Of a stretch of 64,000 nucleotides of DNA, positions 16,286-56,574 are shown one piece after another. The stretch's first letter is position 1; each line of letters starts with the position of its first letter. The notes under the pieces were generated by a model. That model had not been told where the DNA came from. It worked only from the letters and a program-made list of their open reading frames with translations, and searched no databases. The translations under genes and the position numbers were made by a program. This stretch comes from Mobula hypostoma (lineage: Eukaryota): the NCBI RefSeq assembly GCF_963921235.1, contig NC_086108.1, positions 91,390,001-91,454,000 of the forward strand, written 5' to 3'.

Positions 16286-17735
16286 CAGTGGCATGCAAAA
16301 GTTTGGGCACCTCTGGTCAAAATTTCTGTTACTGTGAATAGCTAAACGAGTAAAAGATGACCTGATTTCCAAAAGGCATAAATTTCCAAAAGGCATAAAA
16401 AAGGCTATCTTAGATTGATTCTTGTATAATAACTCAGATGACACATTTCTTTAATATTTTAATCAAGATTACTTTTTTATTTCCATCTTTTACAGTTTCA
16501 AAATAACAAAAAAGGAAAAGGGCCCAAAGCAAAAGTTTAGGCACCCTGCATGGTCAGTACTTAGTAACACCCCCTTTGGCAAGTATCACAGCTTGTAAAC
16601 ACTTTCTGTAACCAGCTAAGAGTTTTTCAATTCTTGTTTGGGGATTTTTGCCCATTCTTCCTTGCAAAAGACTTCTAATTCTGTGAGATTCTTGGGCTGT
16701 CTTGCATACACTGCTCTTTTGAGGTCTATCCACAGATTTTCAATGATGCTTAGGTCGGGGGACTGTGAGGGCCATGGCAAAACCTTCAGCTTGCACCTCT
16801 TGAGGTAGTCCATCGTGGATTTTGAGGTGTGTTTAGGATCAATATCTTGTTGTAGAAGCCATCTTCTTTTCATCTTCAGCTTTTTAACAGACAGTGTGAT
16901 GTTTGCTTCCAGAATTTGCTGGTATTTAATTGAATTCATTCTTCCCTCTACCAGTGAAATGTTCCCCATGCCACTGGCTGCAACACAAGCCCAAAGCATG
17001 ATCGGTCCACCCCCGTGCTTAACAGTTGGAGAGGTGTTCTTTTCATGAAATTCTGCACCCTTTTTTTCTCCAAACATACCTTTTCTTATTGTGATCAAAA
17101 AGTTCTATTTTAACTTCATCAGTCCACAGGACTTGTTTCCAAAATGCATCAGGCTTGTTTAGATGTTCTTTTGCAAACTTCTGATGGTCTTCCAGACCTC
17201 AACTTGACCTCCACTGTTCCTGTTAACTGCCATTTCTTAATTACATTATGAACTGAGGAAACGGCTACCTGAAAACGCTTTGCTATCTTCTTATAGCCTT
17301 CTCCTGCTCTGTGGGCATCATTTATTTTAATTTTCAGAGTGCTAGGCAGCTGCTTAGAGGAGCCCATGGATGCTGATGGTTGGGACGAGGTTTGAGGAGT
17401 CAGGGTATTTATAAAGCTGTGAAGTTTGCATCACCTGACCTTTCCTAATGATGATTGTGAACAAGCCATAGCCCTAACAAGCTAATTAAGGTCTGAGACC
17501 TTGGTAAAGGTTATCTGAGAGCTCAAATCTCTTGGAGTGCCCAAACTTTTGCATGGTGTTTCTTTCCTTTTTTTCACTCTAAAATTGTACAAAACTAAAA
17601 TAATACACTAATCTTGCTTAAAATGTTGAAAAGAATGTTTCATCTTTAACTTCATGACTTTTCAGTTCATCTTCCACTCACTTTTCACAGTTACCTAAAT
17701 TTTGACCGGGGTGCCCAAACTTTTGCATACCACTG
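16286..17735 (-). mobile_element. Tc1 transposon (IR/DR-type long TIRs), internally deleted transposase
   Basis: TA|CAGTGGCATGCAAAAGTTTGGGCACC...GGTGCCCAAACTTTTGCATACCACTG|TA with inner direct repeats near 16530 and 17540; GYKKIAKRF HTH, TVKHGGGPIMLW, LQQDIDPKH and WPSQSPDLSIIENLW motifs. Confidence 0.96.
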
Positions 17736-17761: not shown

Positions 17762-18120
17762 AACACATACAAAATGCTGGAGGAACTCAGCCAGTCAGGC
17801 AGCATCAATGGAAATGAATGAATAGTTGACGTTTTGGGCCAAGATCCTGCTTCAGGACTGAGAAGGAAGGGGAAAGGTGGCAGAATAAAAAGGTGAGGGA
17901 GGCAAAGGATGCAAGCTGGAAGGCGATAAGAGAAGCCAGGTGGGTGGGAAAGGTCAAGGGCTGGAGAAGAAGGAATCTGATAGGTGAGGAGAGGGGACCA
18001 TAGGAGTAGGGGACCTGGGGGAAGTAACAGTCAGGTAAGAAGAGGTAAAAGGTCAGAGTGGAGAATAGAAGAAGGGGGCGGTGGAATTTGTTTACTGGAA
18101 AGAGAAATCAATATTTATGC
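17762..18120 (-). mobile_element. Penelope-like 3' fragment with decayed hammerhead
   Basis: Reverse strand: ORF end (NIDFSFQ*), CT-rich UTR, AGTCCTGAAGCAGGATCTTGGCCCAAAACGTCAACT, pLTR tail; AAATTAAAT on both sides. Confidence 0.85.
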
Positions 18121-31624: not shown

Positions 31625-31868
31625 CTTCAGAATAGAGCTGAGGGGAATTTCTTTACCCAGAGGGCAGTGGATCTGTGGAATTCATTGCCACGGACAGTTG
31701 TCGAGGCCAAGTCACTGGGTATAGTTAAAGTGTAGATTGATTAGTAAGGGTGTCAAAGATTACGAGGAGAATGCAGGAGACTGGGAATGAGAGGGATCAT
31801 AAATCAGCCATGATGGAATGGGAAGCAGACTTGGTGGGCCAAATGCTCCTATGACTTATGGTCTAATA
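31625..31868 (+). mobile_element. CR1 3' end abutting the truncated Gypsy integrase
   Basis: GGAATTTCTTTACCCAGAGGG...CTCCTATGACTTATGGTC. Confidence 0.88.
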
Positions 31869-34044
31869 GAAGATCAGTGCGCTGGAGAATTGCCCTTGGG
31901 ATTCTGGATGATACGCAGACGATGTAATCTGTTTAGCTCCTAGTTTGTAAACTATCTGCTGGAATAATCCTGACATAAAATTACTCCCTTGATCAGACTG
32001 AATTTCTTTAGGCAAACCAAATAAAGTAAAAAACTTTACGAGAGCCTTTGACACAGTATTGGCTTTTATATTTCTAAGAGGTATTGCATCTGGAAACCTA
32101 GGTTCTGTACAAATGATAGTTAGCAAATACTGATGACCAGCTTTAGTCTTTGGCAATGGGCTAACACAATCCTCAATAACTTTAGAAAAAGGTTCACCAA
32201 ATGCAGTGGGGCCACTAGGGTGACCTGATTAGGTTTACCACAACCTGACAAATGTGACAAGTCATGCAAAATGTTGCAACATCTTTCCTTAAACTAGGCC
32301 AGAAGAATTGTTTTAAAACTTTGTTCACAGTTTTCTTCACACCTAGATGGCCACCCAAGGGTTTACTATGGACCAAAGTTAAAATCTCATTCCTATAGGC
32401 TTTGGGAACTACAACCTGGTGAACAATTGCCCATTCCTCACTTGCAGGAACATCAGGTGGTCTCCACTTCCTCATTAACACTCCATCCTTGAAATAAAAC
32501 CCTACTGACACTTAATCAATCTCCTCACCTGAGAGAGCTTTTTCTCTTAAAGCTTCAATCTCAGGGTCTGTGCTCTGTTCTGCTATAAACTCCATCCTAG
32601 ACAGAGATAAATCTTTATTATCAGATTTAATACCTGGATCCTGGTGAAACAATGAAGGCAGAAAAGTCCCTGACAAGCCTTCAAAATCTGATTCCCTGTT
32701 TGGGCTATCATGAGTAGCCGAATCATGCTGCACAGGACCATCTGCATTGGCAAGTTTCTTGGCCCTAGCTCGAGTTACTGCACACGACGGATCAATTTTA
32801 GGATCTATCTTTGAATCATCATTGATTAGCTTAGTTGTCAGCTGCACTGCAGGAACAACTTTACCACCTGCTAGGTCATTCCCTAACAACAAAGGAATAC
32901 CTTCCATCAGTAAACTGGGTCGTAGTCCTATTTTAACAAGTCCTGAAACTAACTCTGACTTCAAAATTACCTTGTGCAGAGGTATAGGAGCAACGTTGCA
33001 CCCAATACCTCGAATAAGGTTTACCTCACCAGTGGCAGTCTCATCACCAAACTTTAAAACACTGTCTAACATTAGTGACTGAGAAGCCACAGTATCTCGA
33101 AGAATTTTCACTGGTATCAGGGTTGACCCTTCCTTTACTGAAACAAACTCATCTGACGTAAGATGAAGGAATTCTTTCCTAACCTAACCAGATGTTTTAG
33201 TTTTTGACAGAGCTTCATGAGAATGTGCAGAACCCCGTGGATTTACAGGTGTTTCAATATTTTGAACACAGGCATCTGGAACTGCCTCCTTTTCCTTCTT
33301 CTTTTTCAGAAGGAAACAGTTAGCCATAACATGACCAGGTTTCCTACAATAGTGACAAGTAGGACAAGAGGGCTTCTCCTTTAATTGTTTCCCTTCATCC
33401 TTACCTTGGTCACTAGACCCAGATTTCATTTCTGGTTTACCCTGACTATCCATGCTACTCTTTTGGAAGGTCTTACTCGGGTAAACTTAACCTTGTGGGT
33501 TAAAGCAAACTCATCTGCTAATCTAGTAGATTCCTGCAAAGTGGCAGCATCATTTTCATCTAAATATGCCTTTATATTATTATGGACGCACCTTTTAAAT
33601 TCTGCAATTAAAATTAACTCTTTCAGTTTCTCAAAATTACCATCCACATTTTTAGATGTTCACCACCTTTCAAAACACACAGATTTCTCATAAGCAAATT
33701 CCACATGAGTCTGGTTCACAGATTTCTTCAAATTCCTAAACCATTGCCTATAGGCTTCTGGATCCAGATCATAGGCTTTAAGCACACCCTGTTTCATAAT
33801 CTCATACGTAGCTGCATCTTCAATTGATAGGGCAGAATAAGCCTGTTGAGTCTTACCCTTAAATACACTCTGTAACAAGAGAGGCCAGCTTCCTTCCGGC
33901 CACTTCAGGCTCTGAGCCACTTTCTCAAAATGCTGAAAGTATTTATCAACCTCAGTTTCATCAAATGGAGGGATCAACTTCTCTATCCTCTCTAGCTCAA
34001 ACCCTTTTTTCTCTGCTTCTTCAGCTGCAAACCGCCTCTGTTTT

Positions 34045-34205
34045 TCTGCTTCCTCAGCCTCAAGCTGTTTTTGTCGTAACTCAATCTCGAGCTGTTTTTC
34101 TCATAACTCAATCTCGAGCTGTTTTCCTCAACTCAGCCTCGAGCTGTTTTCCTCTTAACTGAGCCTCGAGCTGTTTTTGTTTTAACTCAACCTCGAGCTG
34201 TTGCT
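34045..34205 (-). repeat. ~27-bp tandem repeat in gag (KQLEAELR-like coiled-coil units)
   Basis: About six copies of AACTCAxxCTCGAGCTGTTTT with small indels. Confidence 0.85.
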
Positions 34206-34574
34206 GTCTTCGCTTATCCTTAGCCTTCATCGTTAGTTTTTCCAACTTGTACTGGAGAACAAGCTCACTGAGTTTACTTTTGGGAAACCTTTCTAACACC
34301 CCCTCTTCAAACGTCCTCAAAGAAATATAGTGCTCAGCTATTATCCTCTGAATCTGTACCTTTTTCATATCCCATTTTACTGCAGTAAGTCCCAGCTCCT
34401 TAGCAATGGCCAGCAAGTTGTCCTTTCTGGCATCCCCTAATGTCTTAGGGTCTGGCAACGCCAGAAATGCCCCGATATCCATTGCTGCTGGTTTCCCCAC
34501 ACAAGTCAATCAAAAGTGTAGTAGCCAATGAGATCAATAATCAATCAATAAGCTCCAATTTTGTTAATTTCGCT

Positions 34575-40001: not shown

Positions 40002-41217
40002 TAATCCAATTTACCACCCCATCATCCAGATCATTAATGTATATGACAACATTGGACCCAGTACAGATCCCTGAGGCACACCACTATTCACCGGCCTCCA
40101 ATCTGACAAACAGTTATCCACCACTACTCTCTGGCGTCTCCCATCCAGCCACTGCTGAATTAATTTTACTACTTCAATATTAATACCTAATGATTGAACC
40201 TTCCTAACTAACCTTCCATGTGGAACCTTGTCAAAGGCCTTACTGAAGTCCATATAGATAACATCCACCGCTTTACCCTCATCATCTTTCCTAGTAACCT
40301 CTTCAAAAAATTCAGTAAGATTTGTCAAACATGACCTTCCATGCACAAATCCATGTTGACTGTTCCTAATCAGACCCTGTCTATCCAGATAATTATATAT
40401 ACCATCTCTAAGAATACTTTCCATCAATTTACCCACCACTGACGTCAAACTCACAGGCTGATAATTGCTAGGTTTACTCTTAGAACCCTTTTTAAACAAT
40501 GGAACAACATGAGGAATACTCCAATCCTCCGGCACCATCCCCGTTTCTAATGACACTTGAAATATTTCTGTCAGAGCCCCTACTATTTCCATACTAACTT
40601 CCCTCAAGGTCCTAGGGAATATCCTGTAGGGACCTGGAGACTTATCCACTTTTATATTCCTTAAAAGAGTCAGTACTTCCTCTTCTTTAATCATCATAGT
40701 TTCCATAACTATCCTACCTGTGTCCCTTATCTTACACAATTCAATATCCTTCTCCCTAGTGAATATCGAAGAAAAGAAATTGTTCAGAATTTCCCCCATC
40801 TCTTTTGGCTCCACATATAGCTGTCCGTTCTGATTCTCTAAGGGACCAATCTTATCCCTCACTATCCTTTTGCTACTAATAAACTGTAGGAACCCTTTGG
40901 ATTTATTTTCACCTTGCTTGCCAAAGCAACCTCATATCTTCTTTTAGCTTTTCTAATTTCTTTCTTAAGATTCTTTTTACATTCTTTATATTCCTTGAGC
41001 ACCTCATTTTCTCCAAGCTGCCCATATTTATTGTAGATATCTCTCTTTTTCCAAACCATGTTTCCAATATCCCTTGAAAACCATGGCCCTCTCAAATTTT
41101 TAACTTCTCTTTTCAACCTAACAGGAACATAAAGATTCTGTACCTTCAAAATTTCTTCCAAAGTGCGCGACCATAAACCTCCTACTTTGTACTTCAAGTT
41201 GCAGGTTTAGAGTGATT

Positions 41218-52815: not shown

Positions 52816-53710
52816 AGCACTGAGTGCCTGGACAGCCTTACAGTACCTGGTCCATAGATTTCTGCCAGAGTGCAGATGCAGTTGCTACTTGAAAAGTAAG
52901 CCTATTATAGCGATGAAGTTCTCTGTGAGTGTTTAATGTAGGAAGGACTCTTCTTCCATCTCCAATTGTAGGTAGGCTTCAGCTAAGTCCACTTTGCTGA
53001 AGTGTTTTCTTCCAGAAATATTTGCAAAGATATCCTCTATACTAGGCAGAGGGTATTGATCCATAATCAGTACTGGATTACTGGTGACCATAAAATCACC
53101 ATAGATCCTAGCAGACCTATTGTTCTGGCTACTGGGATCATTGGCATTGCCAATGGGCTCCACTCACACCTGGAAAGAATTATTTCAGTCTCCATGCAAT
53201 CTAGCTCACTGGCTACTCTATCATGGATGGTATAAGGAGCTGGACAGACTTTACAAAACTTGGATATGGCATTTTCATTTAACACTTCTTCTTCTTCCTA
53301 TGTTTGAGTTTTCCACTGTCATCATTGAACATTCCTGTGGTAACATCCAATAACTTTAATTCAATTTCAGTTCACTCTGTTACAGGGATTGTGGTATGTA
53401 AATGGTGGATGGATCTCCAATCAAATTGTTATTGTCTCAGCCACTCACAACTCCACAATGTTGGCCCTCTTTTCTTTAACCACATGCAAGTCCAATGTGT
53501 TTGTTGGTTGGTGTATTTCACTGCTATAAATGTCATTCCAACAGGAGTTAATTTTTCTCCAGCATATGTTGTTAGTTGGATATCTGTAGGCTTCAGTTCA
53601 GTATCTTTGAAACAACTTTCAAACTCATATTGTGGAATGACTGAAACAGCCAAGCCAGTGTCCAATTCCATTTTAATTAATTTATCATTCACTTCTGCCA
53701 TAGGCCATAT

Positions 53711-53828
53711 TGAAGGGTCTCGGCCCAAAACATCAACTGTACACTTTTTCATGCCTAGCCTGCTGAGTTCCTCCAGCATTTTGTGTGTGTTGCTTGGATT
53801 TCCAGCATCTACATACTTTCTCTTGGTT
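53711..53828 (+). mobile_element. Penelope-like pLTR fragment inside the Gypsy relic
   Basis: TGAAGGGTCTCGGCCCAAAACATCAACTG...GCCTGCTGAGTTCCTCCAGCATTTTGTGTGTG. Confidence 0.85.
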
Positions 53829-54721
53829 TTGCTTATCTATTGGTAGTTTCACATTGTGAATCTCAAGTCTATCCAGTCCAGTATCACTCTCATCATTATC
53901 AGATTTTTCATCAACAGCATGCAGATTAGTGGTCTTTCTGAAGCTGCAACTTTTAATCTTTTTCTCTTCCCTGTGCAGTCCACTTATTTTTGTCTGCTCA
54001 ACATGCTCTTTGTTATATATCCTACTAATTCTTTTTTTGCAAGTTTCACACTGGAGGAATATTGTATCATTTCTTAATGCATGCATTACTAAATGACAAT
54101 AAAAGAGGACTGCGTGTCCTTATAATCTAAATCTAAATCTAAGATGTCGAAAAGACTAAACTGAGTAACCAAAAGATGAGTCCTCTGCTGAAGGTCCAAA
54201 ACATGGAAGAGAGGTATAAACATCACCATGAACTACAAAACCAAGTATCTTCTTCTAGTGCCATAGTTTATATAATCTTACTTGTGACAGAATATCATGA
54301 GAAAAATAACCATCCATTGTTTCTTCAGCCAGCTAGCTCACTCTTTTATTTGCATTAATATCGGTGTAATATCAGATGAGATTTGCATATTGAAGGATAA
54401 ACAACTTTATTCATCAGTAGCATAAAGGTCATTATAAATTAATGTTTCTTGAATATGGGAAAACTAACCAACCTTTTAACCTACACTAAGATTAATCTCC
54501 AACATTAATTTAACCATGGCTATCTTATAACTCTCAAGAGCCCCATCTAATCCTTGCTTCTTAAACCTTAACTATCCTTCCCTCATCTTGTGTAGATGTT
54601 CCACTTCTCTTGTCAACCTGCCATCCTTTCTCTGCCACATGACACAATCCTTTCCAGAGCCTCATGCAGCTGCTCCCTAAACAACCTCCACATTTCCACA
54701 GAATTAAAGGAAAACCTTTTG

Positions 54722-54815: not shown

Positions 54816-55500
54816 ATTTGGAAGAATTTCCATCTCTGAACAAATACAAGAGCTGTATATGCATGCCTGAAAGAAAACCCAGTAAGAAAAGCAAGTGATG
54901 AATACGAAGGATATGCGAACTTCAAGCCAAATAACAGTGAGCCTTTAATACAGCAACCAGCTAGGAAGTAGAGTCATAGTCTAACAGAAAACATTTAAAT
55001 CCTGGGTTTTGAGTATTTTGGTATTCAACTATTCATGTGCTCAGAGAAATTTCTGGATATGTTTACTGTAGAAATTTTTAAAATGTAGTATTCTATAAGG
55101 CCATAAGAGTTAGAAACAGAATTAGGCCATTTGTCCTATCGATCTGCTCCATCATTCTATCATGGCTGCTTTATTATTACCCTTAATCACATTCTCCTGC
55201 CTCCTCCCCATAACCTTATTAATCAAGAACCTATCAAGAATTAGCATCCACAGCTGTCTGTTACAATGAATTCTACAGATTCACCACCCTCTGGTTAAAG
55301 AAATTCCTCCTCATCTCTGTCCTAAAGGGATGTCCTTCTATTCAGAGACTGTACCCTCTAGTCCAAGGCAGCCACTTTAGGGAACATCCTTTCCACATCC
55401 ACGCAACATGAGGAAATCTGCAGATGCTGGAATTTCAAGCAACACACGTAAAAATTGCTGGTGAATGCAGCAGGCCAGGCAGCAACTATAGGAAGAGGTA

Positions 55501-55538
55501 CAGTCGATGTTTCGAGCTGAGAACCTTCGTCAGGACTA
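55501..55538 (-). ncRNA. Minimal type I hammerhead ribozyme, partly decayed copy
   Basis: TAGTC-CTGACGA-AGGTTCTCAGCTC-GAAA-CATC-GACTG; stem II weakened, ACGT palindrome mutated. Confidence 0.65.
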
Positions 55539-56047
55539 ACTGAAAGAAGAGATAGTAAGAGATTTGAAAGCGGGAGGGGGAGATCCAAAATGATAGGAGA
55601 AGACAAGAAGTGGGGGGATGGAGCTGAGAGCTGGACAGGTGATTGGCAAAAGGGATATGAGAAGATCATGGGACAAGAGGCCTAGGGAAAAAGAAAGGGG
55701 GAAGGAGAAGCCCAGAGGATTGGCAAGGAGTATTGTGAGAGGGACAGAGGGAGAAAAAGGAGAGAGAGATAGAAAGAAAGAAAGAAATAACGGGTGGGGT
55801 ACAAAGGGGAGGTGGGGTATTAGCGGAAGATAGAGAAGCCAATGTTCATGCCGTCAGGTTGGGGGCTACCCAGATGGAATATAAGGTTCCTCCAACCTGA
55901 GTGTGGCTTCATCTTGACAATAAAGGAGGCGTGGGTAGACATATCAGAATGGGAATGGGACGTGGAATTAAAATGTGTGGCCACTGGGAGATCTTGCTTT
56001 CTCTGGCAGACAGAGCAGACAAATCTCTTACTATCTCTTCTTTCAGT

Positions 56048-56085
56048 TAGTCCTGACGAAGGGTCTTGGCCCGAAACGTCGACTG
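56048..56085 (+). ncRNA. Minimal type I hammerhead ribozyme, intact core
   Basis: TAGTC-CTGACGA-A-GGGTCTTGGCCC-GAAA-CGTC-GACTG: stem I, both catalytic boxes, stem II and GUC site present. Confidence 0.85.
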
Positions 56086-56574
56086 TACCTCTTCCTAGAG
56101 ATGCTGCCTGCTCTCCACATCCACTCTATCTCTGCTTTTCAAAATTTGATACGTTTCAATGAAATTCTCCCCTCATTTTTCTAAACTTTGGAGTACAGGT
56201 CGAAAGCTATCACGTCCTCCTCAAAAGTTAACACTTTCATTCCTGGGACCATTCTCCTGAACCTTCTCTGGACCTTTTCCAATTCCAGCACATCTTTTCT
56301 TAGACAAGGGACCAGATTTCTAATCCACCTGCCAGAAAATCACTAACTATCTGCTTTAGTAAAGGAAAATTGAGATACCTGAAGCCCAACCTACCACAAA
56401 AAAATTAATTCACAGTAGCTATTGAGTAGTAGGTACAGTCTGTTATAGGAATGATGTCATCAAACTGCAGAGTGTGAGTAGTTACTTGTTAAGCTGAGGA
56501 AGTGTGAGGCTTAAAAAGGGCTTGGGGCCTTTCAGTGTGCTGCAATCATAATGATCATATATCCAATGTATTTA

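Follow-up and report, generated by a model that had tools for sequence, protein, structure and literature searches.

A minimal hammerhead motif in a head-to-head Penelope-like insertion of Mobula hypostoma and the probable origin of paired arms in its family

Anatomy of the insertion and its motif

The window, a 64,000-nt stretch of the Mobula hypostoma genome (contig NC_086108.1, positions 91,390,001 to 91,454,000), carries a 708-bp head-to-head Penelope-like element (PLE) insertion at 55403-56110. The insertion lies inside the 3' part of a LINE, including the end of the LINE ORF, which spans 55241-56309 on the minus strand and which we take to be CR1. A 14-bp target-site duplication flanks the insertion, with its left copy at 55389-55402 and its right copy, carrying one mismatch, at 56111-56124 (both plus strand), and when the flanks are placed on three host-repeat copies that stand uninterrupted in the window, they overlap by 14 nt. 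The 3' ends of the two arms point outward, and their 5' ends meet at a 3-nt junction (56017-56019) that holds no palindrome.

The long arm (55403-56016, minus strand) comprises the end of a PLE ORF, a pyrimidine-rich pLTR, a second hammerhead, and a tail, and its 3' end falls about 100 nt past the cut. Its ORF piece (55820-56016, minus strand) is a broken, frameshifted C-terminal remnant (the GIY-YIG end) with 27 of 34 residues identical to the ORF of family copy L105; Pfam searches of five frames at or near the insertion returned no PLE domain, the piece being too short. The short arm (56020-56110, plus strand) is a 5'-truncated pLTR copy running from 61 nt before the predicted cut to 29-30 nt past it, and its 91 bp are identical to the inverted segment 55476-55566 at 84 positions, with seven differences. 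The inverted repeat reported by an earlier reading made from the sequence only was thus real, in that this arm is inverted relative to the longer one; the accompanying claim that the motif lies antisense to the element body did not hold: the arm repeats the same pLTR in sense orientation, as a second copy truncated at its 5' end. In the family, 3' ends usually fall at +55 to +77 or +91 to +101 from the cut. The short arm reaches neither and ends at 56110 (+29/+30), 25-45 nt short of usual, yet it abuts the duplication directly.

Within the short arm, the plus-strand segment 56048-56085 reads as a minimal type I hammerhead motif. Stem I pairs TAGTC (56048-56052) with GACTG (56081-56085) in 5 bp, of which the outer pair is U·G. 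It is followed by the C3-A9 catalytic box CTGACGA (56053-56059) and a single unpaired extra A at 56060, between positions 9 and 10.1, which was invariant in 24 of 24 aligned rows. Stem II is a 4-bp helix of GGGT (56061-56064) and GCCC (56069-56072) around the loop CTTG, closed by G10.1-C11.1. The G12-A15.1 box GAAA (56073-56076) leads into the final CGTC, in which the palindrome ACGU (56076-56079) replaces the helix III loop. The CUGANGA, GAAA, and UH core elements are all present. Hammerhead numbering makes 56080 position C17, so the cut is predicted between 56080 and 56081, in agreement with the earlier placement after GUC. Core, stems, ACGU, and pLTR location together bear out the earlier assignment to the PLE pLTR minimal hammerheads with a palindromic stem III.

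The long arm carries its own hammerhead at 55501-55538 (minus strand), decayed by a stem II mismatch and by ACAU in place of ACGU, and missed by the descriptor search. That search, run with a minimal-hammerhead descriptor on both strands of the window, gave one match, the 56048-56085 motif, compared to 0.02 matches per window after shuffling (two-base tokens, 200 rounds). The Rfam hammerhead families gave no match at gathering scores within the 64-kb window. The fold energy of the motif alone was unremarkable (z −1.57). By every feature testable here, the segment is a real PLE minimal type I hammerhead motif.

Copy number, conservation, and source family

The exact 38-mer of the motif occurred 597 times in the genome (control 0), so the intactness of the window copy is ordinary. 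Four 21-22-mers just downstream had 90,159, 13,456, 9,072, and 3,113 exact genome matches, with none for the controls; the Mobula hypostoma genome holds more than 100,000 such PLE ends. Arms were drawn from three samples: 29 loci picked by likeness to the window's short arm; 80 regions from 150 listed ORF-end matches, 20 of them picked for long open frames, so that young copies are over-represented; and 120 loci at the start of one contig, picked by patterns downstream of the cut. Loci L031-L045 were excluded as overlapping, and family counts drop arms below 84-85% identity to a young copy.

Among 256 sampled arms spanning the motif, the core was intact in 191, stem I in 207, stem II in 236, and ACGU in 202. 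All of these were kept together in 122 arms, 36 of which also had G10.1-C11.1. At position −9 from the cut (window 56072), a G10.1·U11.1 pair was found in the majority of sampled arms (170/288), including the youngest-looking copies, unlike the usually conserved G-C described in PMC4209133. Changes within the family affected 35 of 2304 core cells (1.5%) vs. 218 of 10,158 flank cells (2.1%); the core was not clearly better kept, as expected under neutral decay. In 24 older, diverged arms, the motif differed at 11% of non-CpG cells (72/640) and the flank at 25% (284/1147), a contrast that may be inflated by the use of local alignments. This slower drift of the motif suggests selection in the source elements. 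Stem pairing across copies held as sequence conservation only: 89.4% of 216 cells were paired with one two-sided change, and no covariation rose above shuffles, the copies being too alike.

Copies of the source family (L105 and L049) encode a reverse transcriptase together with a C-terminal GIY-YIG domain in one frame (RVT_1, E 2.4e-5; GIY-YIG, E 4.2e-4), both scoring below the Pfam cut-offs. The ORF contains YIDD, GVIY..YIG, and a CX4CX2C linker (CKRNKCYTC). A CX2-5CxxC linker before GIY-YIG marks Neptune or Nematis (PMC8557442), and on this linker motif the family is placed as Neptune or Nematis type. A partial tandem forming pLTRs was seen in the sampled copy L123. A further minimal hammerhead, at L115:2938-2981 (plus strand), whose stems are entirely different and whose stem III is AUGU, probably belongs to another family.

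We consider it probable that the window motif is the pLTR hammerhead of this very high-copy Neptune/Nematis-type Penelope-like retrotransposon, and that it is likely an inactive passenger in a short arm whose templates were likely uncleaved and probably two RNAs. The metazoan PLE minimal hammerheads described in PMC4209133, including those of fish Xena, Poseidon, and Neptune, have the same core boxes, 5-bp helix I, extra base, G10.1-C11.1 pair, and palindromic 15.2-16.2 as the window motif, and they likewise occur in opposite-strand pairs 100-700 bp apart and are dispersed in mass as truncated copies. Helix II is 4 bp here, compared to 7-8 in the Schistosoma families of that paper. The text consulted from that paper names no cartilaginous-fish minimal hammerheads, and its supplements may list some. 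The class is reviewed in PMC6765202, and retrozymes and PLEs have been reported in one chondrichthyan (bioRxiv 10.64898/2026.07.22.740005). By these sequence features, the window insertion is a standard inverted PLE unit with a motif of an already described class. As one of very many copies, the motif is of little importance by itself. The data on the family speak to two PLE questions, the origin of the inverted arm and the action of the hammerhead on the template.

Template starts and the origin of the two arms

The 5' ends of the copies were examined in 146 arms of the third sample. Thirty-two had their first base between 37 and 24 nt ahead of the cut, where stem I starts; the stopping rate there was 0.029 per nt vs. 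0.001-0.003 farther upstream. In the window copy, this zone holds TCAGTT (56043-56048, plus strand) after a pyrimidine tract, where the family 5' ends pile up and which we take to be initiator-like or splice-acceptor-like. We infer that the start of stem I is an RNA 5' end, beside this initiator-like element. Some EN+ PLE families carry a spliceosomal intron in the pLTR; here, an acceptor-like CAG precedes stem I, and arms starting there share no upstream exon; a spliced-leader explanation was dropped for lack of a common one. In D. virilis, transcription also begins inside the pLTR (PMC2377424). At the cut itself, no pile-up of 5' ends was seen among the 146 arms, with only four beginning at −2 to +4, and 132 of 136 arms read through it. 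We infer from this that the templates were mostly uncleaved RNA.

Genome-wide, 1400 symmetric units turn in the ribozyme-start zone and 99 near the cut. Many tiny fold-back units have their turning point at the 5' half of the motif (window 56047-56060), which forms a quasi-palindrome. Perfect palindromes centered on the predicted cut numbered 77 (e.g., C1:10834978-10834999), compared to three at a different 6-bp palindrome, which roughly a quarter of the arms carry, and five at a 4-bp one. These cut-centered palindromes may record rare ribozyme cleavage; stronger G+C pairing, or deletion of a loop between the stem I strands, would give an identical junction. Eight adjacent tailed-untailed units contained an arm that began at −5 to +8; in five of them the partner started at −19 to −41, so annealing of the stem I mirror can explain some of the cut-site starts.

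Of 92 inverted head-to-head pairs, 78 joined a tailed and an untailed arm. A duplication of at least 10 nt flanked 73 of these 78, compared to 1.2% of shuffled pairs, which indicates that each such pair arose in a single event. With one template, the arms should be identical. In 36 long, duplication-flanked units, however, the arms differed at 36 of 250 marker transversion sites, where the background was 121/14,863 (0.8%) and random pairing gave 39%; this discordance favors two RNA templates over fold-back. Because site +55 is close to short ends, a recount omitted it and gave 33 of 222 sites discordant. Of 187 sites upstream of the inferred start, a region present once per transcript, 25 differed. 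The markers were linked to other sites (V 0.3-0.9) and are thus inherited, and the discordance counts were too uneven for a clock or site hypermutation model (p 7e-8). Linked differences at all distances showed no phase (66 coupling vs. 64 repulsion); close linked sites did (38 vs. 9, counts that are not independent). An exact-haplotype test was null (8/16 vs. 6.9 expected). In five of the 36 long units, the partner was the closest arm, with 12 private variants shared. Short symmetric units, which often turn at the quasi-palindrome, were concordant, differing at one of 35 marker sites, and this fits self-priming or one shared RNA. The arms of the window unit differed at one of eight marker sites (+17, T vs. 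G), and both of their haplotypes occur elsewhere, nine times each, which is no more than suggestive of two RNA templates for this unit.

The principal finding is that the long insertions likely often owe their two arms to separate RNA molecules, a result of modest mechanistic value. The best reading of the marker data is a mixture of origins in which two templates are common in long units, with gene conversion still a rival. As a route, the element's enzyme would make cuts in the two target strands, offset by about 14 bp, and a cDNA would be primed from each end, with the tailed start site used for one of them and a site nearer the ribozyme for the other; the two cDNAs would stop early and their ends would be joined. 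The templates would likely be uncleaved RNAs and, in many units and probably in the window unit, two different molecules. The source element's hammerhead likely sits right at the beginning of its transcript and would cut only weakly, as a protein-assisted dimer through ACGU. The full scheme, in which a dimeric enzyme primes both staggered-cut ends on two RNAs and so joins two source elements, the shortest copies are run-offs at the 5' end of the RNA, where the hammerhead lies, and a few templates are ribozyme-cut in vivo and leave the 77 cut-centered palindromes, has in our estimate an even chance of being right.

The strongest alternative is that the short arm arose by fold-back self-priming on the first cDNA, from one template, with the seven differences as later mutations. 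Such priming was proposed in PMC3846280 and suits the short symmetric units, which turn at the 5'-half quasi-palindrome (1400 units genome-wide) and differ at none of 18 marker sites when +55 is left out; the window arms also share seven of their eight marker sites. The window junction, however, joins −529 and −61 with at most 1 nt of homology and no palindrome, the one difference falls at an inherited marker whose two haplotypes both recur elsewhere, and fold-back alone leaves the marker differences in long units unexplained. We regard it as an unlikely, though by no means negligible, explanation for the window unit.

Slightly less probable still is that the arms were identical at insertion and that ectopic gene conversion later replaced blocks of one arm. 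The differences do fall in blocks, donors are abundant, and older units are the more discordant (rho 0.35, p 0.035), a trend expected of gene conversion. Young units were nevertheless already discordant, at five of 60 marker sites in eight units (background 12/3968), and the young copy L049 has nine shared-allele differences over 760 nt, with eight private ones in 1148 columns. By our estimate, conversion would have to reach around a fifth of the arm length before point mutation accrued to 1%.

In the literature searched, as listings and abstract openings and extending to neither Arkhipova 2006 nor Lunse 2017, we found no study testing one vs. two templates for PLE arms. The Pen2a_Av EN+ PLE unit (PMC3846280, PMC8557442) has the same head-to-head arms, one-end tail of ~35 nt, and target-site duplication; unlike units of its type, the short arm in the window ends earlier than either usual end. 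The duplication is mostly 13-17 nt here, as scored, and 8-10 nt in Adineta (PMC3846280). Arkhipova et al. read the inversion as self-priming (PMC3846280), whereas long units here are often unequal-armed. Among duplication-flanked pairs, the longer arm was untailed in 39 units and tailed in 23. PAc, the Anolis Poseidon element of Frangieh et al. 2024 (PMC11167929), likewise has two tail-matching internal start sites, extension of both target strands, uncleaved RNA as the main template, and a predicted protein dimer. It differs in clade, the family here having a Zn-finger linker, and in that its ORF begins at stem II, whereas here the ORF likely begins well downstream of the hammerhead (L123). 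The text available for that study holds no test of one vs. two templates.

If two RNAs are used per insertion, self-priming explains the short units only, and the both-strand extension shown for PAc in vitro (PMC11167929) gains a genomic counterpart. One particle would then hold two hammerheads, as a dimer-dependent ribozyme needs. The sheer number of PLE ends in this genome makes the two-RNA model countable.

Activity of the window copy and its surroundings

Activity of the ribozyme at this locus is unlikely. As a monomer, its predicted probability of adopting the ribozyme fold was 0.0009, because the core GACG pairs with CGUC, and the swapped dimer (−17.9 kcal/mol) was predicted to be less stable than two misfolded monomers (2 × −13.5). 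In a read-through plus-strand RNA, 35 of the 38 motif bases were predicted to pair with the other arm (probability 0.99 or more). The descriptor scan found no same-strand hammerhead partner in the 64-kb window, and the partner within the insertion is on the opposite strand and decayed. Published minimal hammerheads show no activity as monomers and weak activity as dimers (PMC4209133), and that of Anolis PAc requires its protein and is dispensable for insertion (PMC11167929).

The sequence-only reading had proposed that this copy may still be active. Its core, stems, G10.1-C11.1, and ACGU are all intact, as in only 36 of the 256 arms, RNAs starting at 56000-56044, inside or just before the arm, are predicted to form stems I and II, so that activity in trans is possible, and the 77 cut-centered palindromes exceed those at the control sites. 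Nevertheless, that the copy cuts plus-strand transcripts at 56080, in trans with family RNA or aided by protein, seems quite improbable to us in view of the folding predictions, the missing same-strand partner, and a core not clearly more conserved than its flanks within the family. Nor do the many intact arms and genomic 38-mers support a special status for the copy, whose motif, in a plus-strand RNA through both arms, is predicted to be hidden within the arm-to-arm duplex. That the motif fits the hammerhead pattern by chance, as the lack of Rfam matches and of covariation and the weak folding z-score might suggest, has negligible probability given the shuffle expectation and the retention of the motif in older families while their flanks drift, and is ruled out by the PLE pLTR context.

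Four sequencing runs of presumed type, in contig form, covered the repeats but not four unique-flank bins and one further bin, and bear neither on expression nor on strand or RNA ends. Host protein families gave no match in the 26 frames scanned (of 62 listed plus five), a search that small exons could escape; domain matches in these frames were to reverse transcriptase, DDE, and integrase only. Two decayed remnants of older PLE families were also seen, a pLTR end at 17796-17860 (minus strand) and a short inverted pair of pLTR ends at 53712-53820. The latter breaks a weak aspartyl-protease match at 53429-53836 (minus strand, E 0.0076). A DDE_3 transposase fragment lies at 16619-17104 (minus strand, E 5.2e-9) and a LINE-type reverse transcriptase frame at 40014-40931 (minus strand, E 2.1e-20). 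An integrase frame at 31866-34509 (minus strand; rve, E 1.5e-11) likely belongs to an LTR-type element, and a 27-bp tandem repeat occupies 34026-34229, upstream of it.
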